A program made the position numbers and the translations under genes. The notes under the pieces are model-generated. The model did not search any database. It saw only the letters and a list, made by a program, of their open reading frames with translations, and was not told where the DNA came from. From an uncultured Muribaculaceae bacterium (GTDB lineage Bacteria; Bacillota_I; Bacilli_A; RF39; UBA660), in the NCBI GenBank assembly GCA_964398265.1, contig CAYNLX010000002.1, positions 1-33,011 on the forward strand: a stretch of 33,011 nucleotides of DNA. The letters run 5' to 3'. Positions 3,390-30,019 of the stretch are shown here, one piece after another; position 1 is the stretch's first letter, and each line of letters starts with the position of its first letter.

Positions 3390-3407
3390 AATATTTTAAT
3401 ACAAAAG

Positions 3408-3445: not shown

Positions 3446-3474
3446 ATAGGGCAATTCACAAAGGGGGAATTAAA

Positions 3475-6636: not shown

Positions 6637-6663
6637 AAGCACTAGAAAATCTAGTGCTTTTTT
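6637..6663 (+). terminator. Intrinsic terminator of the 3475-6634 unit
   Basis: AAGCACTAG (6637-6645), loop AAAAT, CTAGTGCTT (6651-6659), then a T-run. It lies 3 nt after the stop codon. Confidence 0.75.
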
Positions 6664-6665
6664 AT

Positions 6666-6687
6666 AAAAAAGATGCTAGTTAGCATC
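6666..6687 (-). terminator. Putative intrinsic terminator at the end of the minus-strand glycan operon
   Basis: Minus strand reads GATGCTAACTAGCATC (6687-6672; 6-7 bp stem containing the TAG stop at 6678-6676) followed by TTTTTT (6671-6666). It converges on the plus-strand terminator. Confidence 0.45.
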
Positions 6688-7152
6688 AATATATTCTTCA
6701 ATTGCTTTTATTATATTTTCAGTGTTTGATTTAAATCTTTTCGGTTTAAATCCTTTTGCTGCTTTTATCACATCTTCTAATTTATTAAAATCCTCTAATT
6801 TTAAAATATAACCCGATTCATAAAAATTATTTAATATTTGTAATTGATGATTATTAGTATGTTCACCATATTTTTTTAATCTCGCAGCCCCAATAATTTT
6901 TTTATTGTATTTTAATCCGGTCATTATAGATCCTACTCCAGCATGAGTTATTATAATATCACATTTTTTTATTAAATCTTCTAAATCACTATTTGATATA
7001 TAATCAAATATTTTCATTCTGTTAGATTTATATTTTGTAAAACCGGCTTGAACTATTATTTCATCTTTAAGATTTGTTTTTTCTATTGCATCTAATAATC
7101 TAGAAAATGGTTTGTCCTGGGTTCCTAATAAAACTAATATCAAAATATCCAC
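6676..7152 (-). CDS. PssE/Cps14G-type glycosyltransferase subunit (Alg13-like, GT28 C-terminal domain)
   Basis: VLLGTQDKPFSRLL near the N-terminus, then IITHAGVGSIMTGLKYNKKII....EHTNNHQLQI, which is characteristic of Cps14G/PssE/Alg13-like proteins. The track start is a GTG at 7152. A TTG at 7143-7141, 4 nt after GGGGTGGA and overlapping the upstream TGA as TTGA, would give the family-typical MILVLLGT N-terminus. Confidence 0.85.
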   Translation of the reverse strand: MDILILVLLGTQDKPFSRLLDAIEKTNLKDEIIVQAGFTKYKSNRMKIFDYISNSDLEDLIKKCDIIITHAGVGSIMTGLKYNKKIIGAARLKKYGEHTNNHQLQILNNFYESGYILKLEDFNKLEDVIKAAKGFKPKRFKSNTENIIKAIEEYIDAN

Positions 7153-7616
7153 CCCTTATATTTTGCTTTTGGATACAATTCAAGCATATTTTTCCATTGA
7201 ACTAAAAATAAATCTGCAAACTTATAAACAATTCTTCCTGTAATTGATTTTGTACTCATATTAGCCATTGTTTCAATAAATATAATTTTAGTACCAAATA
7301 ATTTCCCTATACAACACATTGGACCGGAAGTATGTGCACCAGTTGTAATAATAAATGAAGGTCTTACTTTAATATAAATAAATAAACTCTTAAAACAATT
7401 AAAAAGTAATTTTAATGGATATGTTATCATGTGATCTTTAGTTCCATACATTAAAAAACTAATACGCTTTTTATATTGCTCTTTTAAAAATAAATTGCTC
7501 TTTGTTTTTTCTGTAACAATATAATAATCGTACTTATTAAACATTTTCTTTAGTTGCATCATTTCAGTAAAATGACCGCCTGTACTAGAAATAAACATTA
7601 CTTTCTTTTTTTTCAT
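7140..7616 (-). CDS. PssD/Cps14F-type glycosyltransferase membrane-associated subunit (Alg14-like)
   Basis: 158 aa. FISSTGGHFTEMMQL matches the GGH motif of Alg14/Cps14F. It is immediately upstream of, and overlaps, the Alg13-like partner, as in the split Cps14F/G enzyme. Confidence 0.85.
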   Translation of the reverse strand: MKKKKVMFISSTGGHFTEMMQLKKMFNKYDYYIVTEKTKSNLFLKEQYKKRISFLMYGTKDHMITYPLKLLFNCFKSLFIYIKVRPSFIITTGAHTSGPMCCIGKLFGTKIIFIETMANMSTKSITGRIVYKFADLFLVQWKNMLELYPKAKYKGWIF

Positions 7617-7623
7617 TTTTCAC

Positions 7624-8739
7624 CTATTTCAATAGTTTAAGCCACTGGTTTTTAACTTTTTCGGATAAATATTCTTTTACTTTTTTCTTTGACTTATCTG
7701 AATACTTTTTTAACTCTTTTTTATTATTTAATAATTCTACTATCTTATTTGTCATTTCCTGTTTATCTCTATTCTTGACTAATATACCTGTATTTTTGAG
7801 AAGTTCCTTTGCTCCGGTAGCACTATCAAAAGCAATACAAGGTAATCCATAATTCATAGCCTCAATTAATACTAACCCGAATGATTCAGTAAATGATGTC
7901 ATCACATATAACGATGATTTTAAATACTTTTTTTCTAATTCAGTTTGACCAATAAATCCTAATAAACTTACATTGTTTTTTAAAGCATATTTATCAATTT
8001 GTTCTTCAATTCTGTTTTTTTCAGATCCATCTCCGCATATAGTTAAATGAACATCAGGTATCTCTTTTTTTACTAGATTTATTATTTCTATTAAATCATA
8101 AAAACCTTTTTCTGTTGCTAATCTTCCGACTGTTATTATATTATTGTTGTTTAATTCACTAATAATGCATGAAGATTTATCAATAACATTAGGAATATAA
8201 ATACACTTAGTATTACCTATGCGCTTATTGTAATAATTGTATAATTCTTTTGATATTGCAATATAATAATCAAAACCTTTTAATGATTTAATAACTTTAT
8301 TATTATATTTATCTGAGTCATTACAAGAGTTATGCTCACTAGCAATTTTAATAATACCTTTTCTTAAATATTTATTTATCAATCTGTTATGCTCTATCCT
8401 CGTTGATATTATTATATCGCAATTTACATTTTTTATTGCTTTTTTTATTCTATGCTTTTTTTGGAATAAAATATATATTCTTTTAAAAATTTCCTTTAAT
8501 AATAATAAATACTTTTTTGAATTCAATAATTGTCTAGCAGAATTATCATAAGGGCCAAAAGAAAACAAATAAAAAATTTTTACTTTGTTATCGATGAAAT
8601 ATGCAGGTGTTTTTTTAGTTTTATAAACTGAAATAATCTCAACGTTATAATCGCTTGATAAAATGTTAGCTAACGAAGAAACATACTTTTCTATTCCTCC
8701 ATGACCCAAATGAAGGCAAACAATAACAATTTTTTTCAT
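7624..8739 (-). CDS. Glycosyltransferase family 4 (GT-B, retaining type)
   Basis: 371 aa with VGRLATEKGFYDLIE and a canonical EX7E block (TESFGLVLIEAMNYGLPCIAFD). Its start overlaps the upstream stop as ATGA. Confidence 0.9.
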   Translation of the reverse strand: MKKIVIVCLHLGHGGIEKYVSSLANILSSDYNVEIISVYKTKKTPAYFIDNKVKIFYLFSFGPYDNSARQLLNSKKYLLLLKEIFKRIYILFQKKHRIKKAIKNVNCDIIISTRIEHNRLINKYLRKGIIKIASEHNSCNDSDKYNNKVIKSLKGFDYYIAISKELYNYYNKRIGNTKCIYIPNVIDKSSCIISELNNNNIITVGRLATEKGFYDLIEIINLVKKEIPDVHLTICGDGSEKNRIEEQIDKYALKNNVSLLGFIGQTELEKKYLKSSLYVMTSFTESFGLVLIEAMNYGLPCIAFDSATGAKELLKNTGILVKNRDKQEMTNKIVELLNNKKELKKYSDKSKKKVKEYLSEKVKNQWLKLLK

Positions 8740-9938
8740 TTTCCATCTCCATATAGTGTTATTTCATCCTCAAGTATTTTCTCTAATTCATTCATAAGTT
8801 TTTCTTTTTCAAAATGTTTTTTATAATAATTAAATCCATTTATACCATATTTTTTCCATTTATTAATCATTTTAATCTCTTCCAAAATAAGTTTTGACAT
8901 ACCTTCGGCATCTAATGAATTACAACATACACCGCATTTTGCTTCCTTAATTATATCATTTACTTCTCCACTTGCTGCACCAAAAATCGGCTTTTTTGCA
9001 AGCATATAAGATTGAATTTTTGCAGGAAGCGTATTATTTACTATTTCATTATCGTCCATAGTTATAACAAATGCATCTGCTAATTCATAAAATTTTTCCA
9101 TTTGTTCAACATTATAAAACCCATAAAAAACTACATTACTAAGATTATAGCTTTTTGCCAACTTCATACACTTTTTTTTATTTAATCCATCTCCAATAAT
9201 ATGAAAAATAATGTTTTTCTGTTTTTTTAAATAATTTGCACATTCTATTATGGTTTCTACACTTTGTGCTGGGCCAATATTACCAGCAAATACTAAATCT
9301 ATCTTATCATTGTTTGTTGTTGATTCAATACAGTAAACATCTTCAGCATATGATGGCCAATAATTTATGCTTTTTTTTATTTTAAGTACTTCATTAAAAT
9401 ATCTTTCAAACGACTTAGAACTTATAGTAATCTTATCTGCTCCATTATAAATATACTTACTATATTTCAATGCTATTTTATAAATTAAACTATTCTTTTT
9501 TATCCCACCTGCTGTTAAACTTATTGGCCACTGATCTAAACAATGAATAATGAAAGGAATTTTCTGTCTCTTTTTCACAATTATTCCAGCATGAGCCATG
9601 GATATTGGAGATAATTGAAAACAATATACTATATCAAACTCTTGATTAAGAAATAGAGCTTTCATACAAGATGTTATTAGAAAAGAAACATAGTTTAATC
9701 CCATTTTTAAAGTACTATTACCTCTGCCAACTATTCCACAGCGAATTATTTTAATTCCGTTATACGTTTCTTTTCTTTTTCTAAAAAACCTATAATCTTT
9801 TTGAATAACACCGCTTGGATAATTTGGCAATCCAGTTAAAACAGTTACACTATTTCCTTTTTTTAACAAATCTAAAGCTATATCATTTATTCTAAATTGT
9901 TCCGGATAAAAATGTTGACATATTATTAATATTCTCAT
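8736..9938 (-). CDS. WcaI-like glycosyltransferase (GT4 / GT-B)
   Basis: 400 aa. The N-terminus MRILIICQHFYPEQFRINDIALDLLKKGNSVTVLTGLPNYP is typical of WcaI-type GT-B enzymes. The C-terminal half has LPAKIQSYMLAKKPIFG. Confidence 0.8.
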   Translation of the reverse strand: MRILIICQHFYPEQFRINDIALDLLKKGNSVTVLTGLPNYPSGVIQKDYRFFRKRKETYNGIKIIRCGIVGRGNSTLKMGLNYVSFLITSCMKALFLNQEFDIVYCFQLSPISMAHAGIIVKKRQKIPFIIHCLDQWPISLTAGGIKKNSLIYKIALKYSKYIYNGADKITISSKSFERYFNEVLKIKKSINYWPSYAEDVYCIESTTNNDKIDLVFAGNIGPAQSVETIIECANYLKKQKNIIFHIIGDGLNKKKCMKLAKSYNLSNVVFYGFYNVEQMEKFYELADAFVITMDDNEIVNNTLPAKIQSYMLAKKPIFGAASGEVNDIIKEAKCGVCCNSLDAEGMSKLILEEIKMINKWKKYGINGFNYYKKHFEKEKLMNELEKILEDEITLYGDGK

Positions 9939-9945
9939 ATAAACC

Positions 9946-10278
9946 TCATTTATTACTTTTTAATATAGATATTTCCTGAATTAATTTTCTAATCCTTTTC
10001 CCTTGCTTTGATACAATAACCGTTAGTGATAACAACATAAAAATTGTCATAGCAAACAAAAATGCAAAAATAAGATTAGAGCCTGTTTTTATTCCAACAA
10101 TTTTTGTTATAAAAGATAAAAAGCCAGGAATAACGGTGAATAACAATAATAATCCAATTATAAAAAACCATAAAATTGAATACTTAATAGATATTTGATC
10201 TTTTTTTAGCATCAATAATACCACTACGGCCAACACTATTAATAATGTAAAACTAATTATAATTAACTTAATTGGCAT
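9946..10278 (-). CDS. DUF2304 small membrane protein (GacJ-like partner of polyprenyl-phosphate sugar synthases)
   Basis: 110 aa with three to four hydrophobic helices and the family-typical ISIKYSILWFFIIGLLLLF...SLTVIVSKQGKRIRKLIQEISILK. Its start overlaps the GT2 stop (TAATG). Confidence 0.75.
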   Translation of the reverse strand: MPIKLIIISFTLLIVLAVVVLLMLKKDQISIKYSILWFFIIGLLLLFTVIPGFLSFITKIVGIKTGSNLIFAFLFAMTIFMLLSLTVIVSKQGKRIRKLIQEISILKSNK

Positions 10279-10976
10279 TATTTTTCCCTCCTTATATATA
10301 TTATCAATATCGACAATACAACATTAATCATATAATAAATGTTTTTCCATGTTCTTATCGAAGATATTCCACTTTTTCTTTCTTTCATAATAACAGGTAC
10401 TTCGGTAACAGTTTTTTGTTTCCTAAGTAAAATGGTAGTAGTAACTGGTTCTGGATATTCTACAGGATATTCATTTTTAAAAATTTCTATTACTTTTTTG
10501 TTACACGCTCTAAGTCCAGATGTTGTATCATATATTTTAAAACCAGTAGTTAGTTTAATAAAGAAAGAAATTATTCTAATTCCTATACGTCTTGAAAAAG
10601 ATGATTTAAATCCCTCGTTATTATCTACAAATCTCGACCCTATTACCATATCTGCTTTATTTAATAAAATTGGTTTAATTAAGCTCTCAATCGAATTTAT
10701 ATCATGCTGTCCATCTCCATCAAATTGAATAGCAATATCATAATCGTGATCATAAGCATACTTATATCCAGTTTGAACAGCTCCACCTATTCCTAAATTA
10801 CTTACCAAACTAATATAGTTATAATTATTTATTTTACATATTTTTTCAGTATTATCTGTTGAACAATCATTAATAATTATATAATCATATTTATTATTCT
10901 TTTTTATTTCTTCAATCACCAATTTTATATTATCTTCTTCATTGTATGCAGGTATAATTAAAAGTATTTTTTTCAT
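10278..10976 (-). CDS. GT2 glycosyltransferase, polyprenyl-phosphate sugar synthase type (GtrB/CsbB/GacI-like)
   Basis: 232 aa with IIPAYNEEDNI, INDCSTDNT and FDGDGQHD motifs. Small GT-A size, with a short hydrophobic C-terminus (MINVVLSILIIYI). Coupled to the DUF2304 gene. Confidence 0.85.
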   Translation of the reverse strand: MKKILLIIPAYNEEDNIKLVIEEIKKNNKYDYIIINDCSTDNTEKICKINNYNYISLVSNLGIGGAVQTGYKYAYDHDYDIAIQFDGDGQHDINSIESLIKPILLNKADMVIGSRFVDNNEGFKSSFSRRIGIRIISFFIKLTTGFKIYDTTSGLRACNKKVIEIFKNEYPVEYPEPVTTTILLRKQKTVTEVPVIMKERKSGISSIRTWKNIYYMINVVLSILIIYIRREK

Positions 10977-10981
10977 ATTCG

Positions 10982-12856
10982 TTACTCCTCCAATTCAAAA
11001 TGAAATTTAGACTTTGTATTTTTAACAATTCTATATATTTGATCTGAATTAAGTTTTGTATTAAACATTGAAGAGTATTTATTTTCAAAATAATCATCAA
11101 TATTTAGTAAGATTATATAATCATAATCTTTATTTACCAAATTCCAAAAATCTTCCACTTCATAATCACTTGACCATTGATCAGACTCATAACATATATT
11201 TCCGATGCTCCATGGAAAATTATTTTTATTAGTCTTAATAGGAGTTAATTCATATCTCATTACCCAAAAATCAAATCCGTCGCTACATCTCGAAACTATA
11301 AAAACTGAATCTTCCTTTTTTACAATTTTTTTCACTTTTTCCCCGAGATTTACATATCTTTCCCTAATATTTTTTGAAGATATCCATGATTGTGGAGCTA
11401 ATAATGATATTGACAAATAAGATATCGGCTGTAAAGAAAAGAATACTACTAAAAATAATACACAAATACATTTTTTCGTATTAATATTTTTTATAATACT
11501 TATCACCATCAACAATAATAGTCCTATAATATATGGAGAAAAATACCTATTAAATGAAGCAAGTCTTAATGCTTCGTATTCTGAAAAAATTGAAATATAA
11601 CATGAAAACACAATTATACTATAACCCAAAAAACCAAGTAAAGATGATATTATACTACATAATATAAACCTTTTTTGATCCTTTTTGCTTTTGCTATATA
11701 TGTATCCCATTGTAAAAATAAAAATAATTAAAAAAGCTGCAATAGAAATATTAATAAAGGAATCTACCATTCTTCCATTAAATATTTCTCTTATAAAATT
11801 ACACAACACTTTTAAACGATAATCACCGGTATTAAACATAAAAATCTTTTTATAACTTGAAATCACTAAAGAAAAAGTATTAGACGATATTCCGCTTTTT
11901 TCTCCATACAATGATAAAAAGAATATCCAACTATATCTAATAAGTAATGATGGCAATAATATTAAAATATTAACTAAAATTTTTTTTACATACATAGATT
12001 TTTTCTCTAGCTTTTCAGAAAACAAAACCATAAATGACATTATCAAGAATACTAATAGCGAAAGCACGAATCCAAAGTCTTTTATTATTATTAGTGCAGA
12101 TAGAATAGTTGATAAAAACAAATAATCAAAAAAGCTTTTTTTCTTTATACAAAAGCAATAGTATAATGCTACGAAAAAATAAATACCAAGTGTAGCATCA
12201 ACATACAAGGATGAATAAGCATTCCAAATTACAAGTAATGGTAAGAAAAAAATAATTAAAACTGAAAAAATAGTTTTTATAGAAAAAACTTCTTTAAGCT
12301 TATTTACATTAGTTAATAAAATAAATAATGGAGATATAGTAAAAATACTCATCGAAAGAAACAATACTGATTCTTTATATTCTCCAAATAGTTTTAAGCA
12401 ATAATATTGAAAAATAGAAGTTCCAGACAAATAACTCTTTGCTACAATAGTAGAATCCAGGCCCGTTCCCAAATTATTTAACATAAACATATTCTTTGCG
12501 GATAAAGCCCAATGAGAAAATTCATCCCAAACGGTAGCCATTTGAGAAAAAGAGGCCCATGAGAATAATAAAAAAACAACAATAATAATAAACAATGATG
12601 GCCTAATTATCAATTGTAATAATTGCCTATTTTTTATTATTTTAACCATCATTATAATGAATGAAATAATATTTATACCTATCAAAAAATGGAAACCAAT
12701 TAAAAGATTATTAAAAGCTATACCAAATAAATATAAAAATAAAGCTTGAAATACTATTGAAAGAATAAATGTTAATTCTATTTTTTTATTAAACATAATA
12801 GAAATAAAACTACTCATATTAATTAATAATAATAATAATAATATATATCCCATCAT
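10982..12856 (-). CDS. Polytopic membrane protein, putative GT-C fold glycosyltransferase (GacL/YfhO-like role), paralog of 24525-26432
   Basis: 624 aa, more than 12 hydrophobic segments by eye and a roughly 130-aa soluble C-terminus. The acidic loop motif VWDEFSHW (D111-E112, nt 12526-12521) follows the third helix. It is alignable along its length with the 635-aa protein. Function is inferred from context (GT2 + DUF2304 directly upstream). Confidence 0.6.
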   Translation of the reverse strand: MMGYILLLLLLINMSSFISIMFNKKIELTFILSIVFQALFLYLFGIAFNNLLIGFHFLIGINIISFIIMMVKIIKNRQLLQLIIRPSLFIIIVVFLLFSWASFSQMATVWDEFSHWALSAKNMFMLNNLGTGLDSTIVAKSYLSGTSIFQYYCLKLFGEYKESVLFLSMSIFTISPLFILLTNVNKLKEVFSIKTIFSVLIIFFLPLLVIWNAYSSLYVDATLGIYFFVALYYCFCIKKKSFFDYLFLSTILSALIIIKDFGFVLSLLVFLIMSFMVLFSEKLEKKSMYVKKILVNILILLPSLLIRYSWIFFLSLYGEKSGISSNTFSLVISSYKKIFMFNTGDYRLKVLCNFIREIFNGRMVDSFINISIAAFLIIFIFTMGYIYSKSKKDQKRFILCSIISSLLGFLGYSIIVFSCYISIFSEYEALRLASFNRYFSPYIIGLLLLMVISIIKNINTKKCICVLFLVVFFSLQPISYLSISLLAPQSWISSKNIRERYVNLGEKVKKIVKKEDSVFIVSRCSDGFDFWVMRYELTPIKTNKNNFPWSIGNICYESDQWSSDYEVEDFWNLVNKDYDYIILLNIDDYFENKYSSMFNTKLNSDQIYRIVKNTKSKFHFELEE

Positions 12857-12858
12857 TT

Positions 12859-14016
12859 CTATTTCTCCTTAAATTCTTTCTTTTTTTTCTCGCAATATTT
12901 CTTCATGACCGTCAAATTATTATAGTCATAATAATATATCAATTCTTGATAAAAAGCTTCTACGCTTCCTTCCAATTCAATTTTTCTTTCATCAGAAATA
13001 TCATTTATAATACTCATTAATTTATTGTCAGTCATCTTCCTTACATTACTATTTGTTTTAGATACTTGACTATCATGAACTCTTATTGAAGAACCAAAGA
13101 CTGGAATATTAATAAAATTATAACCTTTTTTCATCATTCTATACCACATATCTTTTTCTTGAGATATTCTATCATTTTCATCAAAAAATCCACATTCATC
13201 AAAAACGTTTTTAGGAATCATTACAGATCCTCCATTAATATCTCCATATAGAATACTATATTCTGTCTTATAAAAAGATAATAAATAATTAATTGTTTTC
13301 TTATTAATAAAGTTTGTCTCGTTAATTAAAACATTATTATTAGAATTGATAATATCATATAGCATAAAGCCAATACTCTTTTTCCCAAAATTTTTAGATA
13401 AAAATTTTACTTGTTCTTCTAAAAAATTGCTTTTATAAAGATCGTCATGACTCAACCAAACAAAATACTCACCATTCATCATTCGAATACCATAATTAAT
13501 CGCTGATGATACACCACCATTTTCTTTTTCATAATAACTAATAAGATTAGGGAACTTTTTTTGATATGATTTTGCAATTTTTTTAGTTTGTCCATTGTCG
13601 TTACTACCATCGTTTACTATTATTATTTCAAAATTTCTATAGCTTTGAGATAAGGCACTTTCAATAGCAAACTTTATATAATTAGTAGCATTGTATGCGG
13701 GTATAACAATAGATATTTTTGGATTAACTTTATTATTTTCCTTCACATTGTCATATATCGCCTTATTCTCCAAAAAAACTTGTTTATTAATTCTACAAAA
13801 TTCATATGAAACCTGTTTTTTGTTATTTAACAATATTTCTTTAAATACTAATTCGAATTTATTATCATGGACATCTATTGCCTTATATATATCATTAAAT
13901 TGACTTGATAATTTTTTTTCTATTATATCTGTTGATATTTCATCATAACTTGGGTAACCAATAATTTTTAAAAAACACTTTCTAACAAATTGTTTCAATT
14001 TTTTAAAACTTCTCAT
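12859..14016 (-). CDS. GT2 glycosyltransferase with a roughly 95-aa N-terminal extension
   Basis: 385 aa with ISIVIPAYNATNYIKFAIESALSQSYRNFEIIIVNDGSNDNG...WLSHDD. Close paralog of the first domain of the next gene upstream. Confidence 0.85.
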   Translation of the reverse strand: MRSFKKLKQFVRKCFLKIIGYPSYDEISTDIIEKKLSSQFNDIYKAIDVHDNKFELVFKEILLNNKKQVSYEFCRINKQVFLENKAIYDNVKENNKVNPKISIVIPAYNATNYIKFAIESALSQSYRNFEIIIVNDGSNDNGQTKKIAKSYQKKFPNLISYYEKENGGVSSAINYGIRMMNGEYFVWLSHDDLYKSNFLEEQVKFLSKNFGKKSIGFMLYDIINSNNNVLINETNFINKKTINYLLSFYKTEYSILYGDINGGSVMIPKNVFDECGFFDENDRISQEKDMWYRMMKKGYNFINIPVFGSSIRVHDSQVSKTNSNVRKMTDNKLMSIINDISDERKIELEGSVEAFYQELIYYYDYNNLTVMKKYCEKKKKEFKEK

Positions 14017-15811: not shown

Positions 15812-15855
15812 TAGATACTTCCTCCCGATAATACTATTATAACTTAATTGTCAAT

Positions 15856-15883
15856 AAAAAAAAAGAGAAAACACTATTTTCTC
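15856..15883 (-). terminator. Intrinsic terminator (or attenuating hairpin) inside the minus-strand gene array, after capG
   Basis: Minus strand reads GAGAAAA (15883-15877), loop TAGTG (contains the capG TAG stop), TTTTCTC (15871-15865), then nine T (15864-15856). Confidence 0.6.
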
Positions 15884-19150: not shown

Positions 19151-19167
19151 CTTTTCATATCCTCCTA

Positions 19168-19899: not shown

Positions 19900-19911
19900 T
19901 TTTACCCTCAC

Positions 19912-20697: not shown

Positions 20698-20789
20698 GCT
20701 ATTCTCCTCACTTTATTAGTTTAACATATTTTGTAAAAAAAAGAAAATAATATAAACATTATTAATATTAAATATGTATTATTATTTTA

Positions 20790-23659: not shown

Positions 23660-24405
23660 AATTGCTCCTTATTATCTTGTATTCTTTTATCCATTATATC
23701 TATAATTCTTGTTAAATCCTTTGGAGAATCAACTGACATAGAATCTGATTCTACTTTAACAATTTTTATTAATTGATGATTTTCTAACAATCTAATCATC
23801 TCAAGTCCCTCTATTTTTTCTAAATTTCCCATACCAACTTTTTCAAATAAATTTAAACATTCTTTTGTATATACATATGCTCCCATGTTTTTATAATATT
23901 CAAAATTTAAATCTTCTTTTGGAAAAGGAATTGGTGATCTAGACATATATATTAGTTCATCTTTGTCATTAATAGCTAATTTTATTGTTGTTGTATTTAC
24001 TACATCAACACAATTTTTAAATTTTGTTGCTAACATTCCAGCATCATATTTTTTATTTTTAATTAAATCTTTTAATAACAAAGACACATCTTTAGGATCA
24101 ATTAATGGTTCATCACCCATTAGAACTAAATATAAATCTGCGTCTATTTTTTTTGATACTTCAATAGCTCTATCGGTTCCATTTTTATGCTCTTTTGAAG
24201 TCATGATATAGTTTATATCATATTTATCGCACACATCAGATATCCTTTTATCATCAGTTGCAACAAAGATATCAGATAACTCTGTTATTTGTTTTCCGTG
24301 ATTATATACCCACCAAATCATTGGCTTTCCACTAATATCTGCTAAAGGTTTTCCAATAAATCTGCTTGATTCATATCTTGAAGGGATTATTCCGACAATT
24401 TTCAT
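23656..24405 (-). CDS. kdsB: 3-deoxy-manno-octulosonate cytidylyltransferase family (KdsB-type CMP-sugar synthetase)
   Basis: 249 aa. IIPSRYESSRFIGKPLADISGKPMIWWV matches KdsB IIPARYASTRLPGKPL.DI.GKPMI, not the NeuA-type SKG motif. Other matches are VATDD, HKNGTDR, LMGDEPLI, G.YVY, LE.IEGLEMIRLLE and SVDSPKDL. Confidence 0.85.
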   Translation of the reverse strand: MKIVGIIPSRYESSRFIGKPLADISGKPMIWWVYNHGKQITELSDIFVATDDKRISDVCDKYDINYIMTSKEHKNGTDRAIEVSKKIDADLYLVLMGDEPLIDPKDVSLLLKDLIKNKKYDAGMLATKFKNCVDVVNTTTIKLAINDKDELIYMSRSPIPFPKEDLNFEYYKNMGAYVYTKECLNLFEKVGMGNLEKIEGLEMIRLLENHQLIKIVKVESDSMSVDSPKDLTRIIDIMDKRIQDNKEQL

Positions 24406-24431
24406 TAATTATACCTCTCTTTTTTTATTTA

Positions 24432-24460
24432 ATTATACTCTATAAACATAATTATTACAA
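24432..24460 (-). promoter_or_regulatory. Putative sigma-A promoter of the minus-strand glycan operon
   Basis: Minus strand reads TTGTAA (24460-24455), 17 nt, TATAAT (24437-24432). The AGAGAGG RBS and the ATG at 24405 lie downstream. Confidence 0.55.
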
Positions 24461-24492
24461 TATTATAAAATAATACCGAATATTTATTAGTA

Positions 24493-24501
24493 TGATATAA
24501 T
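24493..24501 (+). promoter_or_regulatory. Putative extended -10 promoter element of the divergent plus-strand unit
   Basis: TGaTATAAT (24493-24501), 23 nt upstream of the ATG at 24525. No good -35 hexamer. Confidence 0.4.
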
Positions 24502-24524
24502 ACTAATTAGGGATGTGATTATAA

Positions 24525-26432
24525 ATGCACACAGCATTATCTTTATTTATTTTGTCTATCGGAAGTATTTTTGCTAGTGTTTTTTTAGATAAGCGTTTTG
24601 AAGAAAGTATTTCTTTTACTGTCTTAAGTATAACTTTCATTCTTTTCATCTTCTATATGCTTAACATAGTTTTAATCGGATTATATACGATCTTTGCATT
24701 ACTGTTTTTACTTTTGGTTTTATCCGCAATTAAATTTTTTAAAAATAAAGAGTGTCAAAAAAAATATTTATTAAATTTTTTTACACCAGGTCTTTTAATA
24801 TTTATTTTATTATCAATAATCATATATTACATTGTTAAAGATAACTACGTAATGTATTTTGACGAATTAAGAATGTGGGCAAAATATCCAAAAAGTATTT
24901 TTTATACCAATAGATTAATGCTAGATAAATCTTTAATTTTTAGTTCAGACTATTATCCAGGCATGCCATTATTTCAATATTTTTGGTCAAAATGTGTTGC
25001 TACCTTTAAAGATTCTCATCTATATTTTAGTTATTCGATTTTTTGCTTATCGCTTATACTTCCAGTTACTAAAAAAATAACTTGGAAAAAATTTTATTTA
25101 ATTATACCTTCTTCATTTCTTCTATTTATGTTTCCCATGATATTTGCAAACAGTGGATTCGATGGACTTTACTACTATAGAACTTTGTATATTGATCCTG
25201 TTATTGGTATTACTTTTGGATTATCTCTTTTCTTGTCTACTCGTAATTTAAAAAATAATTGGTTTAATTATATTTTATTTGCTCTGTCTTTATCATCTAT
25301 ATTATTAATGAAAATAGTTGGACTAATTCTTGGTTCAGTAGTAATTTTATCTTTTCTGTTTAATCAGCTTGTTATATATAAAAATACTAGTTTAAAAATT
25401 AAAAAAAAGTTTATAAACAATTATTTGTTTTTGTTAATACCCATACTTTTATTTGCATTTACTTTTTTTTCTTGGCAAAACTTATCTGCTAAATATGGAA
25501 GTGTTAATATGGCAAACTCAATGGCAACCGGTGGAATAAAGAATGGAATTAACTTAATTTTTAATCCACAAAAAGAAGATATAGAATTTAGAGAAAGTTA
25601 TATTACGCATATTAATACAACTCCAATAATAGTAAACGATTTGTTATTCAAAGATAAACTTACATTGCCTAATATTACTTTGTTTTTTGCTTTTATAATG
25701 CTTTTATTGTTATTTTCTTGTAGAAAAAAAGATAAACAAATAATATTAAGCTCGATAGTATTTAGTATTATATCAATATTAGTATTTCTTTTGTTTTATT
25801 ATTATATATATAGCACAACTTTTAATAGAGTAATATTATGTTACGGAAGATATATTTCTCCAGTATTAGGTGGAATATCTATTTTGATTTTATACTTGCT
25901 ATTTAATACTGAAATGAAAAATAAATCTATTTCTATATTGATATATTCTATTATAACAATATTTCTGATTCATTTTTCACCAAAATTGAATAATTACAGA
26001 CTTGATGAACAAGTGAACTCCAATATTATTGAATATTCTAAAAATATTAATAAAGTTTTATCTAAATACGATGACGAAAAAAAGATTGGATTAATATATA
26101 ATTCCTGCGATACAGTATCTTTTTCTTGTATATATTATGAGCATCATCTTTCTTTGGATTTAATTGAATATAATATACAAGCCAGTGGAATGATTATTTC
26201 TGAAGCAGACCCAGCTTATTATTATACGCTAACAATAGAAAATATTAAAAGTAATGTCTTAATGAATGATTATCTTTTTGTTAATAATTATCTATTTATT
26301 TTCGAAAATGTTAATAACTTATCAAAAGAAGTTTATGATTTGTTTGGCGAAAGCTTAGAAGCTGGAGAAATATTTAAAGTTGATAGAAATGAAAAGTATA
26401 AAAATGGATTTAAATTAATAAAAATATCATAA
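24525..26432 (+). CDS. Polytopic membrane protein, putative GT-C fold glycosyltransferase; paralog of 10982-12856
   Basis: 635 aa with the same architecture as the 624-aa protein. The loop motif YFDELRMW (D113-E114, nt 24861-24866) aligns with VWDEFSHW. YYPGMPLFQYFWSKCVATFKDSHLYF aligns with YLSGTSIFQYYCLKLFGEYKESVLF. The soluble C-terminal domain is also alignable. Confidence 0.6.
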   Translation: MHTALSLFILSIGSIFASVFLDKRFEESISFTVLSITFILFIFYMLNIVLIGLYTIFALLFLLLVLSAIKFFKNKECQKKYLLNFFTPGLLIFILLSIIIYYIVKDNYVMYFDELRMWAKYPKSIFYTNRLMLDKSLIFSSDYYPGMPLFQYFWSKCVATFKDSHLYFSYSIFCLSLILPVTKKITWKKFYLIIPSSFLLFMFPMIFANSGFDGLYYYRTLYIDPVIGITFGLSLFLSTRNLKNNWFNYILFALSLSSILLMKIVGLILGSVVILSFLFNQLVIYKNTSLKIKKKFINNYLFLLIPILLFAFTFFSWQNLSAKYGSVNMANSMATGGIKNGINLIFNPQKEDIEFRESYITHINTTPIIVNDLLFKDKLTLPNITLFFAFIMLLLLFSCRKKDKQIILSSIVFSIISILVFLLFYYYIYSTTFNRVILCYGRYISPVLGGISILILYLLFNTEMKNKSISILIYSIITIFLIHFSPKLNNYRLDEQVNSNIIEYSKNINKVLSKYDDEKKIGLIYNSCDTVSFSCIYYEHHLSLDLIEYNIQASGMIISEADPAYYYTLTIENIKSNVLMNDYLFVNNYLFIFENVNNLSKEVYDLFGESLEAGEIFKVDRNEKYKNGFKLIKIS

Positions 26433-26449
26433 AGTAAAGGAAGTGAACA

Positions 26450-27604
26450 ATGCAAACACTAATCAATATTGATAATAAAAAAATAATATATTGGAGAGAT
26501 ATTCCAATTGATGTAGAAATTGGTATGTTTAGTTATTATGAAAAGTATTGTACCAATAAACTAGTTATAATTTGTCAAAAAGATTTTGATAATGCAAGAA
26601 AAAAAAGCAATTGGAATAAAAATGAAATTAATAATAGCACAAAAATATTTATTAAAAACATGGATCATGCAAATAGTTTAATTGATAAGTTCAAAAATGA
26701 TATAAATATTTTTTTCGGAATAACTGGAGTTAATCATTCTATTATAGAAATGTTAATAAAAATAAATCCTCATGCAAAGTTTTTTATTGTTGCTGAAAGG
26801 CCAAATGTTTATGGTAATTTTTTAACAAAAAAGATTAGATATATAACTAGATATACCTACTATTCAATTATGGCAAAAAGGTATCAAAAATTTTTACTTG
26901 GATATTTTTGTATAGGAAAATATGGAATAAAAACATATAAAAGTTATGGATGGTCACAAAAAAAATTATTTAATTACATGTATACTTTAAATCAGCATCC
27001 AAATTATAAAAAGGTGTTAAAAACTGATCCTTCAAAAATTAAAGTGTTATATATTGGTAGATTTCTTTTTAAAACAAAAGGTTTAGATTTAATAATAAAA
27101 GCGATGAATAAAGCTAAATATAATAATTTATTTTTAGATTTAGTTGGTGGGTATGGTAAAGATTTGCGAAAAGTTATGAAAATGATCGAACCTAATAAAA
27201 ATATTAATTACCTGGGTCAATGGAAAAATGAAGAATTATTTGAAAAAATTAATAATTATGACATTTGTATAGCCCCAAGTAGATATGATGGATGGAATTT
27301 AACTCCTAATTTAGCAATTGACTCATGTATTGGTACAATCACTACAGCTGAAGCAACAAGTGGAGAATTAATTAAATGTAGTGGTGCTGGAGTAGTCCTT
27401 GATAAAGCGAGGGTTAAAGATTTAAAAAATTTATTAGAAGAAATTGCTTTGAAAGCTCCCTTAATTGATTCATGGAAAGAAAATGCTAAAGAATATAAAG
27501 AAAAAATTAATAACGAAAAAATTTGTAGCTATTTTATCAATGTTATCAATTATTGTTATAATGATTATTATGGAAAAAGACCGGAGGAACCATGGAAAAA
27601 TTAA
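26450..27604 (+). CDS. GT-B (GT4-like) glycosyltransferase with a divergent EX7E region
   Basis: 384 aa. VLYIGRFLFKTKGLDLIIKAM and the following Rossmann-like half resemble GT4. The usual E.FG....EA block reads YDGWNLTPNLAIDS. RBS AAGGAAG. Confidence 0.6.
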   Translation: MQTLINIDNKKIIYWRDIPIDVEIGMFSYYEKYCTNKLVIICQKDFDNARKKSNWNKNEINNSTKIFIKNMDHANSLIDKFKNDINIFFGITGVNHSIIEMLIKINPHAKFFIVAERPNVYGNFLTKKIRYITRYTYYSIMAKRYQKFLLGYFCIGKYGIKTYKSYGWSQKKLFNYMYTLNQHPNYKKVLKTDPSKIKVLYIGRFLFKTKGLDLIIKAMNKAKYNNLFLDLVGGYGKDLRKVMKMIEPNKNINYLGQWKNEELFEKINNYDICIAPSRYDGWNLTPNLAIDSCIGTITTAEATSGELIKCSGAGVVLDKARVKDLKNLLEEIALKAPLIDSWKENAKEYKEKINNEKICSYFINVINYCYNDYYGKRPEEPWKN

Positions 27605-28821
27605 TTAAAAAAAACTTTAATACAATATTATATTTTATTGGAAGTTCACTTTATTCTATTATTACGATACTAATATCAATGTTTCTTACTTATTATTATC
27701 CTCAGGATATTTCACTTGCAGGAAAGTTTACTTTTGCATTTTATATTTCTTCAGTTTTTGCAACTATTGGTAACTATGGCGGAAGAATTATGCAAATATC
27801 AGATTATGATAATGATTTTTCTTCAAGCGAATATATTCGAATTAAGTATTATTCTTCAACAATAATGATGATTATAGCTTTAGTATTTTTCTTCATTAGT
27901 AATTACAGTATTGAAAAAATTTGCTTATTATTAGTATTTATGATTTATAGATTTGTAGAAAATATCATTGATTCATATTATGGAATTTGTCAAAAAAATT
28001 CCCATTTGAATAACGTTGGTATTTCTATTATTCTTAAAACAGTATTAAGCTTTGCAGGTTTTTTGGTGTTATTTATAAATACAAAAAATATGAGTTTATC
28101 TTCAATAGTTTTTATAATAATAAGCTTATTAATATTCTTTTTGTATGATACGAAAAAGGTTAAACCATTTTATAAGAAAGAGCCTATAAGAAAAGAAATG
28201 ATTTTATTAATTTTGAAAAAAAACTTTTCAGTATTTTTATCAACTTTTATTACATTAGGTTTTATGAATGTAACTAGATATTTTGTTGATATAAGGTTTA
28301 GTGAAGAAACTTTATCGATTTTTTCTTTATTAATATTACCTGCATCTTTAATAATATTATTTTCTCAAATAATTATACAGTCATATATTACTAAACTATC
28401 AACAATGTTACATAATAACGGGAAAAAGGCATTTTACAAACAAATATTTACTATTATTATTTATTTATTATTTATTGGAGCAATATTTTGCATATTAACA
28501 TATTTCTTCGGAACCTATTTAATGAATTTATTGTTTAATTATGACTTTTCTAGATATTCAACTTTCTTAGTTCTATCAATATTGTCAGGGGTTTGTTCAG
28601 GATTAGTTACATTTATTTCTACTGCATTTATTATATTAAGAAAGCTTAAGACTCAATTGTTTTGTTATTTATTTTCATTATTTATTTATATTATAATATC
28701 TTATCTAATTACTACTGGTACTTTGGCAAATTGTATGTATTCTTATTTTTTAGGATATTTAATTCAATTGATTATTATGTTAAGTGTATTTTTCCTTAAT
28801 AAAAAACAAGATTTGACTTGA
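27592..28821 (+). CDS. MOP-superfamily (Wzx/GacK-like) polysaccharide or lipid-linked sugar flippase
   Basis: 409 aa with about 12 hydrophobic segments by eye and no soluble domain. Size and topology are typical of Wzx-type proteins. It overlaps the preceding gene by 13 nt. Confidence 0.55.
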   Translation: MEKLIKKNFNTILYFIGSSLYSIITILISMFLTYYYPQDISLAGKFTFAFYISSVFATIGNYGGRIMQISDYDNDFSSSEYIRIKYYSSTIMMIIALVFFFISNYSIEKICLLLVFMIYRFVENIIDSYYGICQKNSHLNNVGISIILKTVLSFAGFLVLFINTKNMSLSSIVFIIISLLIFFLYDTKKVKPFYKKEPIRKEMILLILKKNFSVFLSTFITLGFMNVTRYFVDIRFSEETLSIFSLLILPASLIILFSQIIIQSYITKLSTMLHNNGKKAFYKQIFTIIIYLLFIGAIFCILTYFFGTYLMNLLFNYDFSRYSTFLVLSILSGVCSGLVTFISTAFIILRKLKTQLFCYLFSLFIYIIISYLITTGTLANCMYSYFLGYLIQLIIMLSVFFLNKKQDLT

Positions 28822-28865
28822 AATTATTACTATATTATAATTATAAATAGAGGAGGTTTTTTATT

Positions 28866-29984
28866 TTGGATACAAAAATAGAAAAAGAATTAAAACAAAT
28901 ATTGGAAAACTATGAATTAGGAAGTGACATTGTTTCAATTGATCCAGTAAATACAGGAATAATAAATAGTACGTTTCTTATTAAAACTAAAAATGGAGAT
29001 TATTTTATTATTCAAAAGATTAATACTGGCGTATTTTCTGAACCATATATACTTATGAAAAATATTGAACATGTAACAAATCACATAGAAAGATTTTATA
29101 GGAATAATAATGATTCTAGGCAATGTTTAAAAGTTATTAAAACTAAAGACGATGAATCATTATGCATTATTGATGATGAATTAGATGATAGACATTATTA
29201 TAGAGTATACAATTATATTAAGAATGCTGTGACATATAATAGTGTTAATGATTTAAATGTTGTTAGAAATGCAGGTATTGGTTTTGGAAATTTTGCTAAA
29301 GCATTAGATGATTATCCAATTGATGATTTAGATGAAACAATACCCAACTTTCACAATACACCTAATAGATATAAAGCACTTTTAAAAGACATTAAAATAG
29401 ATCCAAAGAATAGATCAGAACGAGTAAGTAAAGAAATACTATATTTTTTAAAGCATGAAGATGATTATGGAATTATTACTAAAGGTTTAGAAAGTGGAAT
29501 AATAAAAAGAAGAGTCACTCATAATGATACAAAAATAAATAATGTCATGATGGATGAACATTCCGGAGAATATGTATGTGTTGTAGATTTAGATACTGTT
29601 ATGCCAGGTAGTATATTATATGATTATGGTGACGGAATTAGGAGTGCTGCTTCTACTGCTAAAGACGATGAAAGAGATTTATCTCAAGTTGGATTTAATA
29701 AAGATGTGTTCTTATCATTTACGGATGGTTTTCTATCAGAAACAGCAACAATATTAAATGAATCAGAAATAAATCATATGGGTATATCCATACAACTAAT
29801 TACGACAGAGCTTGCTATGAGATTTCTAAATGATTATATTAATGGGGATACATATTTTAAGACAAGATATCCTGATCATAATTTGGTAAGAGCTAGAAAT
29901 CAACTTAAACTTGCCAATGAATTAGAGAATAATATGGATGATATAAATTATAATATTATTAAATTAGCAAAAAAATATAAGTAA
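28866..29984 (+). CDS. APH-fold sugar kinase, N-acetylhexosamine 1-kinase (NahK/LnpB)-like
   Basis: 372 aa with a TTG start 9 nt after AGGAGG (28851-28856). The catalytic block VTHNDTKINNVMMD...VVDLDTVMPGSILYDYGDGIR matches the NahK family as I remember it. Confidence 0.75.
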   Translation: MDTKIEKELKQILENYELGSDIVSIDPVNTGIINSTFLIKTKNGDYFIIQKINTGVFSEPYILMKNIEHVTNHIERFYRNNNDSRQCLKVIKTKDDESLCIIDDELDDRHYYRVYNYIKNAVTYNSVNDLNVVRNAGIGFGNFAKALDDYPIDDLDETIPNFHNTPNRYKALLKDIKIDPKNRSERVSKEILYFLKHEDDYGIITKGLESGIIKRRVTHNDTKINNVMMDEHSGEYVCVVDLDTVMPGSILYDYGDGIRSAASTAKDDERDLSQVGFNKDVFLSFTDGFLSETATILNESEINHMGISIQLITTELAMRFLNDYINGDTYFKTRYPDHNLVRARNQLKLANELENNMDDINYNIIKLAKKYK

Positions 29985-29993
29985 AGATTTCAT

Positions 29994-30019
29994 AAAAAGA
30001 TAGAAAATTCTATCTTTTT
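29994..30019. terminator. AT-rich bidirectional hairpin between convergent genes
   Basis: AAAAAGATAGA (29994-30004), loop AAAT, TCTATCTTTTT (30009-30019). T-runs on both strands. It overlaps the stop of the minus-strand gene at 30010. Confidence 0.45.

Follow-up and report, generated by a model that had tools for sequence, protein, structure and literature searches.

A 23-kb glycopolymer locus of a probable monoderm Firmicute combines a predicted ABC-transporter-dependent pathway and L-FucNAc supply with a rare KdsB and GT80-like gene pair

Introduction

What kind of surface glycan is built by a gene cluster that joins an ATP-binding cassette (ABC) exporter to enzymes for UDP-N-acetyl-L-fucosamine (UDP-L-FucNAc) and for an activated ulosonic acid, and how much of such a cluster is new? 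The question is raised by a 23-kb locus at positions 6676-29984 of a metagenome contig (CAYNLX010000002.1), whose full length of 33,011 bases, with a G+C content of ~25%, was analysed and is referred to throughout as the window. The locus consists of 17 minus-strand open reading frames (ORFs; 24405 down to 6676) and a divergent unit of four on the plus strand (24525-29984). An earlier reading of the letters alone, hereafter the original prediction, had proposed a secondary cell-wall polysaccharide organised like the streptococcal group A carbohydrate (GAC) or RGP loci, in which L-FucNAc and a cytidine monophosphate (CMP)-activated acidic sugar would replace the rhamnose chemistry. Using profile searches, predicted structures and a comparison of related metagenomic loci, we conclude, at a probability of roughly 60%, that the locus specifies a pathway of the wall-teichoic-acid/rhamnan type, dependent on an ABC transporter, for a cell-envelope heteropolysaccharide. 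Its unusual part is a rare cassette of a KdsB-type enzyme and a GT80-like protein, and not the whole 23 kb.

Results

ABC export, backbone synthesis and L-FucNAc supply

The pathway logic had been read from an ABC-2 exporter, a two-domain glycosyltransferase of family 2 (GT2) and a GacI/GacJ-type pair next to a polytopic protein, and the domain matches agree with each of these elements (Table 1). The mycobacterial galactan exporter provides the top NCBIfam matches of both exporter subunits, namely Wzm/RfbD for the permease and Wzt/RfbE for the ATPase (203 bits, followed by TagH at 183 bits), although all scores against this galactan and galactosamine (GalN) system lie far below the equivalog cut-offs and both phylum and polymer differ from those of the window. 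The ATPase has no C-terminal carbohydrate-binding module, its 247 residues being too few for an extra domain. Homologue look-ups brought up six other locus types, five of them measured at 25-27% G+C, which are cited below by handles such as L002. The two-domain GT2 has orthologues at 50-53% identity in L002, L004 and L012, with a double GT2 in the equivalent position of L014 and L015, and the 385-residue GT2 beside it has counterparts in all related loci compared. The family 4 glycosyltransferases (GT4) are less widely distributed: the enzyme at 8736-9938, which matches the WcaI family (NF007640) at 113 bits, under its cut-off, is without an orthologue in L002, L004, L011 and L012, and the enzyme at 7624-8739 has a 46% identical orthologue in L002 only. 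Both halves of a split PssD/PssE transferase are present, adjacent and above their NCBIfam cut-offs.

Homology shows that the adjacent FnlA, FnlB and FnlC enzymes (CapE, CapF and CapG), whose genes overlap by four bases each, make UDP-L-FucNAc. FnlA scores 250 bits lower with the PseB model (only 312 bits) than with the FnlA model, the strict equivalog cut-off of 730 not being reached, and it matches Pfam Polysacc_synt_2 at E 2e-103. Translation probably begins at an ATG further in (19150), because the resulting protein matches the size of its homologues, and the 19-base overlap with the ATPase gene is probably the product of an over-long ORF that begins with TTG. FnlB matches NF047837 (WbcJ) at 403 bits and carries the Pfam Epimerase and Polysacc_synt_C domains, and FnlC matches Epimerase_2 at E 5.8e-90. 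The Cap5/8 loci of Staphylococcus aureus hold the CapE/F/G orthologues in the same order as the window; the staphylococcal capsule, however, follows the Wzx/Wzy route, whereas the present locus encodes ABC export.

The third element is a 232-residue GT2 with a small DUF2304 membrane protein of three hydrophobic segments, whose start overlaps the GT2 stop by one base. The GT2 has PpgS (E 8e-25) and AglJ as its top NCBIfam matches and bears the sequence FDGDGQ, a DxDxQ motif like the one reported in WpsA and dolichyl-phosphate-mannose synthase (PMC10821137). The mechanism of such pairs is established for GacI/GacJ (10.1101/180810) and WpsA/WpsB (PMC10821137), and the PpgS partner Rv3632 is likewise a DUF2304 protein (10.1101/180810). 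PpgS, the top match of the window GT2, belongs to the PpgS/Rv3632/Rv3779 system of mycobacterial GalN decoration.

A conserved core followed by a variable region

A gene-neighbourhood comparison, which had been proposed together with the original prediction, reveals a core common to the window and to L002/L008, L004/L005, L014 and L015, comprising the ABC-2 permease and ATPase, FnlA/B/C, a GT80-like protein with KdsB, the double GT2, a further GT2, a membrane protein of ~625 residues and the GT2/DUF2304 pair. L002/L008 derive from rabbit-gut metagenome-assembled genomes (MAGs) labelled 'uncultured Bacilli'. L004, L012, L014 and L015 retain the order double GT2, ~625-residue protein, GT2, DUF2304; in L002, two further glycosyltransferase genes separate the membrane protein gene from GT2/DUF2304. 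Past this pair, the window continues with two GT4 genes and PssD/E, L004 with Glf and a GT2, L014 with a small EamA-like protein and then Glf, and L015 with a fucokinase/GDP-fucose pyrophosphorylase and a GT2. Because the part beyond GT2/DUF2304 thus differs in every locus, the comparison supports a division into a conserved core and a variable, presumably side-chain-determining region. Within the variable part, the bifunctional fucokinase/GDP-fucose pyrophosphorylase of L015 (12263-15289) is an analogue of the window's N-acetylhexosamine 1-kinase NahK as a salvage kinase. In L012 (14041-14400) and L014 (16912-17271), EamA-like membrane proteins of ~120 residues directly follow GT2/DUF2304, and these may be flippases that replace the window's Wzx-like protein.

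The core locus type also recurs in low-GC Firmicutes metagenomes without the genes for Kdo (3-deoxy-D-manno-octulosonate, an ulosonic acid), as in L012/L013, from a 'Clostridia bacterium' MAG, where the same core lacks the Kdo pair. At its end L012 further encodes a TagO/WecA-type enzyme (PF00953) followed directly by orthologues of PssD and PssE (55% and 46% identity). In L011, which again lacks the Kdo pair, TagO and TagA/WecG are encoded directly upstream of the ABC exporter, and the locus also holds the Fnl genes, an orthologue of the 537-residue GT-A enzyme described below and a second 2-epimerase. L011 additionally bears a 910-residue GT4-GT2 fusion and a sulfatase/LtaS-type enzyme (18025-19536), of the class that includes the streptococcal glycerol-phosphate transferase GacH.

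The relatives carry the taxon labels 'uncultured Bacilli', 'Clostridia bacterium' and 'Clostridium sp.', and their neighbouring genes include SpoIVA and SpoVIF (L014), YpeB, a small acid-soluble spore protein (SASP) and a SleB-like hydrolase (L004), and CtpB (L011). Because sporulation genes neighbour the relatives in this way, the uncultured host is probably a spore-forming monoderm Firmicute.

A KdsB-type enzyme paired with a GT80-like protein

The KdsB/KpsU-type enzyme encoded by the first gene of the minus-strand operon passes one NCBIfam model (NF003952, 236 bits; cut-off 193) and falls narrowly under a second KdsB model (242.5 vs 255). Its top match in the PDB is the Escherichia coli capsule enzyme K-CKS (KpsU; 1gq9, E 4.3e-48, 35% identity), as compared with ~1e-24 for KdsB of the lipopolysaccharide (LPS) type, 4e-6 for NeuA and 1e-7 for PseF. 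By homology its product is a CMP-ulosonic acid, CMP-Kdo being the most likely. On its downstream side, with a four-base overlap, lies the gene of a 418-residue protein, for which neither Pfam, NCBIfam nor PDB sequence searches return a match and which is represented by only 11 entries among 5.8 billion proteins, the window's own included (10 homologues). An AlphaFold model based on this 11-entry alignment (pLDDT, the predicted local distance difference test, 78.9) is matched best by Foldseek to the GT80 sialyltransferase PmST1 (2ihj, E 3.4e-11) and next to the GT38 polysialyltransferase 5wcn. The family profile aligns weakly with a Photobacterium GT80 structure (4r9v, E 0.027), and in this alignment the HP motif (KAHPLFP vs KGHPAGG), PxKxxxE and a pair of serines (GGFCSS/AGIASS) coincide. 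The original prediction had called this gene product a sialyltransferase-motif protein; the fold is indeed of the GT80/GT38 kind by predicted structure, but with the weak profile alignment, 16-17% identity to GT80 structures and no Pfam or NCBIfam match the protein is not a member of GT80 by sequence. The retaining beta-Kdo transferase families GT99, GT107 and GT140 (PMC12887879), represented by WbbB, KpsC and KrkA, are likewise absent from the top 50 PDB structural matches of the model. We therefore propose, from the predicted structure, that the 418-residue protein is a CMP-Kdo-dependent transferase of a new glycosyltransferase family.

The pairing with KdsB is constant: wherever a locus that was read has a homologue of the 418-residue protein (L002/L003/L007/L008, L004/L005/L006, L014 and L015), the homologue adjoins KdsB, in either order. 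A profile scan of genome contigs with this family found only two rabbit-gut MAGs, and an exact-match look-up of the window protein gave only a 2-kb Logan contig. The comparison of loci supports a rare, mobile accessory cassette outside the common core. A 50-residue helix closes the window protein; the homologues have up to ~130 residues of coiled-coil-like sequence at this end and differ mainly in the length of the segment (0 to ~90 extra residues), and several of them finish in a conserved hydrophobic-basic tail (PIYPIIWIRRKIKNIKGKRK) that the window protein lacks. WbdD and WbbB are O-antigen terminators with ruler domains, that of WbbB being a coiled coil, and the coiled-coil-like tail recalls these rulers, a likeness that we regard as a lead.

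The acid in question could also be another 2-keto-3-deoxy acid, either a modified form of Kdo or one of the nonulosonic acids, Kdn for example, which the cytidylyltransferase and the GT80-like enzyme would then handle together. The closest structural relatives of the transferase are sialyltransferases, one KdsB model stays just under its cut-off, and kdsA, kdsC and kdsD are missing nearby in the five locus types; against this, there are no neuB/neuC or pse/leg genes either, the KdsB/KpsU match (4e-48) far outstrips those to NeuA and PseF, and the other KdsB subfamily model is passed. We accordingly consider another acid unlikely and retain Kdo as the most likely sugar.

Since Kdo is classically a Gram-negative sugar, and ABC-2 export with a KpsU-like enzyme is a feature of group 2 capsules, an LPS O-antigen or group-2-like capsule locus of a diderm, with Kdo as core or linker sugar, has to be weighed as well. 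The one record of kds genes in a monoderm Firmicute, a genomic island of Bacillus coahuilensis, also includes kpsC and comes without chemistry (PMC4744853). A group 2 (Kps) capsule is contradicted by the absence of Capsule_synth and Poly_export matches, and hence of KpsC, KpsS, KpsD and KpsE, from the window, which is equally devoid of WaaL, WaaA and Lpx domains. The absence of GT99, GT107 and GT140 from the top 50 matches, the sporulation genes that flank the relatives, the TagO/TagA pair of L011, the Bacilli and Clostridia labels and a DUF3048 (YerB-type) domain encoded in the window flank all point away from a diderm origin as well, which we judge very improbable, and the preferred host remains a monoderm.

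Polytopic membrane proteins and the plus-strand unit

Five unannotated proteins had no usable match when searched directly against Pfam, NCBIfam and PDB sequences, and for the ~625-residue membrane proteins among them the argument is made from topology, motifs and position. The 624-residue protein, whose gene always lies between the double GT2 and GT2/DUF2304 in the loci read, has the invariant residues D111, E112, W116, Y142, K259, R437 and Y438. Its 635-residue paralogue shares the D-E pair past the fourth hydrophobic segment, together with W116, K259 and R437-Y438; the loop that bears the pair is predicted to face outward by the positive-inside rule. Because of this topology, the acidic loop motif and the fixed position between the double GT2 and GT2/DUF2304, we propose that the ~625-residue proteins are glycosyltransferases of the GT-C class, an assignment comparable to that of GacL, itself placed in GT-C by HHpred only (10.1101/180810). 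The family is large, with 7007 representative clusters (50% identity) at E <=0.001 and 4325 at <=1e-30. Among the best 150 of the 7007 clusters there is no bridge to a named family; every member named by its source is 'hypothetical' and comes from Clostridia or Clostridium, and neither Pfam nor NCBIfam has a model for it. A Pfam scan of family members and a tblastn search against plasmids were both negative.

For the 409-residue protein (27592-28821), which the original prediction had called a MOP flippase, a transitive link to Polysacc_synt proteins was found and no direct match, with Pfam being silent even at E 10 and the PDB giving no hit. The protein is 25% identical over 364 residues to a Streptococcus suis protein (pairwise E 4e-25, database E 3e-8) whose gene is flanked by those of an RgpF-type rhamnan synthase and of a DUF2142 protein, and which itself matches Polysacc_synt weakly. 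It also aligns, at E 9e-3, with an 'oligosaccharide flippase' of Bacillus thuringiensis that passes the Pfam cut-off for Polysacc_synt (46 bits). NahK, encoded at the end of the plus-strand unit, can by homology supply N-acetylhexosamine (HexNAc)-1-phosphate.

These plus-strand genes could belong to a second system, so that the minus-strand operon would make the polymer on its own while the divergent unit served another glycan, or NahK were a plain salvage gene. The two units are transcribed divergently; the GT4-like protein, the 409-residue protein and NahK have no orthologues in the related loci; and a strong promoter-like site (TTGACT-17-TATAAT, 11/12) lies at 28813-28841 on the plus strand, just upstream of the NahK start, so that NahK may be transcribed on its own and stand outside the locus. 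The 635-residue protein, on the other hand, is a paralogue of the 624-residue protein, and its 31% identical orthologue in L002 (4114-5991) sits inside a one-directional cluster, beside the orthologue of the 537-residue enzyme. Moreover, the window offers the GT2/DUF2304 module of the minus strand no flippase candidate besides the 409-residue protein, and in other loci the corresponding variable region includes a salvage kinase (Fkp) or a small EamA-like protein. On balance, we find two separate systems improbable and treat the plus-strand unit as part of a single pathway.

A GT-A enzyme with a TarS-like architecture

The inventory of the original prediction was accurate in nearly all its calls but listed 16 items for the 17 minus-strand genes and passed over 20790-22403, which encodes a 537-residue protein. 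Neither Pfam, NCBIfam nor PDB sequence searches match it, and a homologue search returned 13 entries, its own included (12 homologues). In its AlphaFold2 model (pLDDT 87.4), in which the LDDFF motif is an invariant element, the best Foldseek match over the full length is the wall-teichoic-acid glycosyltransferase TarS of S. aureus (5tz8, E 1.2e-8), followed by TarP, B4GALNT1 and WrtF, in which the catalytic domain is matched. As in TarS, a GT-A domain is combined with two tandem C-terminal beta-rich domains, in this case 37% identical to each other (E 2e-9), with no sequence similarity between the two proteins. Because the orthologue in L002 adjoins that of the 635-residue membrane protein, the two may conceivably work together; L011, however, has an orthologue of the 537-residue protein without one of the 635-residue protein nearby.

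Initiation and anchoring of the polymer

No rml, TagF/TagD, initiating phosphoglycosyltransferase or LytR-CpsA-Psr (LCP) gene had been recognised in the window, and no such domain occurs in its ORFs of at least 150 residues. A polyol-phosphate teichoic acid or polyrhamnose locus was rejected, since neither Pfam nor NCBIfam gives a match to TagF, TagB, TagD, RmlABCD or RgpF. The related loci support priming on undecaprenyl-pyrophosphate-N-acetylglucosamine, of the kind known from teichoic acids. For anchoring, it is the relatives with TagO and TagA, or with a TagO-type enzyme, in the cluster, and only these, that point by analogy to peptidoglycan.

The same machinery could instead feed a product that is not linked to peptidoglycan, such as a capsule, a surface glycan with a lipid anchor, or the O-glycan of an S-layer or another protein. 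The S-layer glycans of Paenibacillus and Geobacillus employ an ABC-2 exporter and have a capped non-reducing end, and the window likewise holds an ABC-2 exporter and a possible non-reducing-end capping enzyme, no LCP ligase, and, immediately upstream of the locus (4541-6634), a gene for a Cys-rich repeat protein of possible surface location. LCP genes are, however, usually unlinked in streptococci too; no O-antigen-ligase or Wzy_C-type oligosaccharyltransferase domain is found in any of the membrane proteins; and the TagO and TagA pair of L011 is typical of a peptidoglycan linkage unit. We thus give this alternative little credence and keep to a peptidoglycan-linked product as the working assumption.

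Layout, boundaries and neighbouring genes

The mechanical ORF list agrees exactly with the predicted 17 minus-strand and four plus-strand genes and their boundaries. Among the 16 junctions in the minus-strand series, ten are overlapping or abutting (13, 4, 1, 14, 4, 4, 19, 0, 1 and 4 bases), in line with the description of most genes as such, and the others are gaps of 2-7 bases (n=4) or of 62 and 92 bases (n=2). Profile annotation of the encoded proteins likewise upheld nearly all domain calls through Pfam, NCBIfam or PDB matches: the adjacent permease and ATPase, the two-domain and further GT2, two GT4 and the Alg14/Alg13-like pair by Pfam and NCBIfam; CapE/F/G, as the source of UDP-L-FucNAc, by the FnlA/B/C models and the match to Cap5F; the GT2 and DUF2304 pair beside a polytopic membrane protein by Pfam and the DxDxQ motif; the GT4-like protein and the NahK-like kinase by Pfam and the PDB; and a CMP-activated acidic sugar with a KdsB-like enzyme by NCBIfam and KpsU.

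Promoter-like sites, which are consensus matches only, occur on both strands of the divergent intergenic region, and the left end of the locus is marked by a terminator-like hairpin between the minus-strand operon and the convergent gene at 4541-6634, one of four such sites (0.1 expected). An Rfam scan of the window found no RNA family.

Table 1. Genes and signals of the locus, from the left end of the window to the right
Feature	Position	Strand	Evidence
Bidirectional terminator-like hairpin, left end of locus	6637-6659	.	10-pair stem
PssE/Cps14G (Alg13-like) catalytic half of split glycosyltransferase	6676-7152	-	NF041548, 137.3 bits (cut-off 120); Pfam Glyco_tran_28_C
PssD/Cps14F (Alg14-like) half of split glycosyltransferase	7140-7616	-	NF041549, 171.6 bits (cut-off 110); Pfam Alg14
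GT4 glycosyltransferase	7624-8739	-	Pfam Glycos_transf_1, E 1.7e-38
GT4 (WcaI/WbuB-like), variable region	8736-9938	-	Pfam Glycos_transf_1, E 1.6e-18
DUF2304 small membrane protein (GacJ/WpsB/Rv3632 class activator)	9946-10278	-	Pfam DUF2304, 78.9 bits (cut-off 25.5)
GacI/WpsA/PpgS-like GT2, 232 aa, proposed polyprenyl-phosphate-HexNAc synthase	10278-10976	-	Pfam GT2, E 4.9e-24
Polytopic membrane protein, 624 aa, proposed GacL-like extracytoplasmic glycosyltransferase	10982-12856	-	>10 hydrophobic segments, C-terminal soluble part
GT2, 385 aa, conserved beside double GT2	12859-14016	-	Pfam Glycos_transf_2, E 6.9e-30
Two-domain GT2, 602 aa, proposed backbone polymerase	14003-15811	-	Two Glycos_transf_2 stretches, E 9e-60
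FnlC/CapG non-hydrolysing UDP-HexNAc 2-epimerase	15874-16995	-	TIGR00236 wecB, 270 bits (cut-off 210)
FnlB/CapF reductase with C-terminal cupin domain	16992-18122	-	S. aureus Cap5F 2zkl, E 1.3e-96, full length
FnlA/CapE UDP-GlcNAc 4,6-dehydratase/5-epimerase	18119-19186	-	TIGR04130 FnlA, 562 bits, E 2.6e-169
ABC exporter ATPase (Wzt/TagH class), 247 aa	19168-19911	-	Pfam ABC_tran
ABC-2 type permease (Wzm/TagG class)	19912-20697	-	Pfam ABC2_membrane, E 2.2e-13; six hydrophobic segments
GT-A fold transferase, LDDFF motif, two tandem C-terminal beta-sandwich domains, 537 aa	20790-22403	-	AlphaFold2 and Foldseek
GT-B transferase, sialyltransferase-like fold, HP motif KAHPLFP, long C-terminal helix, 418 aa	22403-23659	-	AlphaFold2 and Foldseek
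KdsB/KpsU-type CMP-Kdo synthetase, first gene of minus-strand operon	23656-24405	-	Pfam CTP_transf_3, E 1.6e-45
Divergent intergenic region (119 bases), promoter-like sites on both strands	24406-24524	.	e.g. TTGTAA-17-TATAAT on minus strand, 10/12
Paralogue of the 624-aa membrane protein, 635 aa	24525-26432	+	23% identity, common DE motif
GT4-like transferase, C-terminal GT1 domain only	26450-27604	+	Pfam Glycos_transf_1, E 6.6e-16
Polytopic membrane protein, 409 aa, probable Wzx/MOP-type flippase	27592-28821	+	Transitive links to Polysacc_synt
N-acetylhexosamine 1-kinase NahK	28866-29984	+	Bifidobacterium NahK 4ocu, E 1.4e-83, residues 10-361

The gene at 4541-6634 (plus strand), directly upstream of the locus, encodes a 697-residue protein with hydrophobic anchors at its N- and C-terminus and many Cys-rich repeats of ~27 residues of the type NYSCSNGTLSG..C; two 81-base tandem DNA arrays (5281-5463 and 5819-6014, 93-94% matches) lie within the gene. 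The protein belongs to no Pfam family and has no LPXTG motif, and it may be a surface protein encoded beside the glycan locus. Upstream of it, 1818-4527 (plus strand) encodes a 523-residue tetratricopeptide repeat (TPR) protein and an acidic protein of 350 residues that has a single membrane segment and no match in databases, apparently in one plus-strand unit. At the other end, converging on the plus-strand unit of the locus, a GT2 domain fused to TPR repeats is encoded at 30010-31101 (minus strand), preceded by an overlapping ORF of 162 residues without matches (31094-31582, minus strand), and the two may form a further glycosylation gene pair beyond the range of the original prediction.

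Discussion

The gene content suggests the following pathway. A TagO/WecA-type enzyme encoded elsewhere would prime undecaprenyl phosphate, and PssD/PssE would add an early sugar, just past initiation. The GT2 and the two-domain GT2 would then polymerise an L-FucNAc-containing backbone in the cytoplasm, in which L-FucNAc would hold the place that L-rhamnose has in streptococcal polymers; both sugars are 6-deoxy-L-hexoses, and polyrhamnose, too, is made by inverting enzymes of several domains. Kdo might be attached by the GT80-like enzyme, either to cap the non-reducing end or to form a branch, and the 537-residue enzyme might add, as its best match to TarS suggests, a cytoplasmic decoration, before the Wzm/Wzt-type exporter carries the chain out. 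In a system of the GacI/J/K/L type, GT2 and DUF2304 would make undecaprenyl-phosphate-HexNAc, to which the two GT4 enzymes just downstream might add further sugars, as happens in the lactococcal polysaccharide pellicle (PSP; PMC10821137). The Wzx-like 409-residue protein could flip the lipid-linked HexNAc and the two ~625-residue proteins attach side chains outside the membrane, and an LCP enzyme encoded elsewhere would ligate the polymer to peptidoglycan.

Several results weigh against this pathway or parts of it. The L-FucNAc transferase is not pinned to any one enzyme, and the roles given to the glycosyltransferases follow from their position and from analogy. Neither PF00953 or PF02397, for an initiating transferase, nor LytR_cpsA_psr, for an LCP enzyme, has a match in the window. 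The 624- and 635-residue proteins match nothing in Pfam or the PDB, whether taken singly or as 5- and 42-sequence profiles, and hhalign of their family against the S. suis DUF2142 protein was negative. For the 409-residue protein a function as Wzx-type flippase is plausible, the support being transitive only. The global TM-score between the 537-residue model and TarS is only ~0.26, and because it is so low the likeness to TarS is one of architecture only. Finally, kdsA, kdsC and kdsD occur neither in the window nor within 10 kb of the transferase gene in five related locus types, and it is for this reason that the identity of the acid sugar as Kdo is something that we infer.

Among known systems, the gacA-L locus of Streptococcus pyogenes and the Rgp/Scc loci share with the window the permease and ATPase of an ABC-2 exporter, a polymerising glycosyltransferase of several domains and a GT2 and DUF2304 pair (GacI/GacJ), and in the window a putative Wzx-like and a large polytopic protein occupy the positions of GacK and GacL. 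GacO/TagO for initiation and the LCP ligase are encoded outside the GAC locus (10.1101/180810). Unlike GAC, the window has no rmlABCD and no RgpF-type rhamnosyltransferase, with FnlABC in their place; it adds the KdsB and GT80-like cassette and the 537-residue GT-A enzyme; its protein in the GacL position comes from another family, one without a Pfam model; and it encodes no GacH-type glycerol-phosphate transferase. The GAC/RGP-like organisation originally proposed holds for the architecture, but the rhamnan plus PSP loci of Lactococcus (Rha-CWPS, the rhamnose-rich cell wall polysaccharide; WpsA-J) and the enterococcal Epa loci are at least as close in layout, the lactococcal one closer still, because the window's division into conserved core and variable region recalls their conserved backbone part with a strain-variable part behind it. 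In Lactococcus, the variable part begins with a GacI/GacJ-type pair, after which come glycosyltransferases of the cytoplasm, a flippase and at least two polytopic membrane proteins (PMC10821137), and the window resembles it in having GT4, GT4 and PssD/E directly after its GT2-DUF2304 pair. The backbone chemistry differs, and elongation on undecaprenyl-phosphate-HexNAc is carried over to the window by analogy.

The nearest parallel for the cassette is the WbbB system of Raoultella terrigena and Klebsiella O12, a Kdo-terminated, ABC-exported O antigen (PMC9587256), in which a CMP-Kdo-dependent enzyme acts on a cytoplasmically completed chain of the ABC pathway, as proposed for the window. WbbB is a retaining GT99 beta-Kdo transferase, however, whereas the best structural matches of the 418-residue protein are the inverting GT80 and GT38 enzymes; the window ATPase lacks a carbohydrate-binding module, and its host is probably a monoderm. 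With PmST1 and the Photobacterium GT80 enzymes the protein has in common the GT-B fold, the HP and PxKxxxE motifs and the CMP-binding serine pair; it differs from them in its partner, which is of the KdsB type and not NeuA, in its extra C-terminal helix and in a polymer role that is only predicted.

In line with the original prediction, which had not recognised the combination as a described polymer type, the literature searched, most subscription journals being outside its scope, yielded no matching description, no matching Kdo or L-FucNAc wall polymer in Clostridia or other Firmicutes, no locus of the L-FucNAc/ABC/GacIJ type and no GT80-like Kdo enzyme. The pathway logic is known, and within the literature so covered the sugar chemistry and three protein families are undescribed; that a monoderm wall polymer contains Kdo, that it is capped and that the ~625-residue family is GT-C are conclusions that we infer. 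A bolder proposal, which we consider doubtful as a whole, is that the 418-residue protein founds a new inverting, GT80-like, CMP-Kdo-dependent family with a coiled-coil tail of variable length that caps an L-FucNAc-based wall polymer in monoderm Firmicutes. Kdo termination and length control, as in WbbB and WbdD, would then have arisen independently and without a carbohydrate-binding module on the exporter, and the ~625-residue proteins would be a large GT-C family uncovered by Pfam.

Although major receptors for phages and ligands for the immune system, the wall polysaccharides made by Clostridia and Erysipelotrichia-like bacteria of the gut have hardly been studied. Three protein families of the locus are without a database model, one of them, with at least ~4,000 clusters (E <=1e-30), in the position of a side-chain transferase, and the locus families offer targets for enzymology and for a better annotation of Firmicutes glycan loci. 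The locus suggests a recurrent class of polymers in which L-FucNAc takes the place of rhamnose and the side chains vary from strain to strain, and a rare subclass of which would also bear Kdo, a sugar regarded as a hallmark of Gram-negative bacteria.

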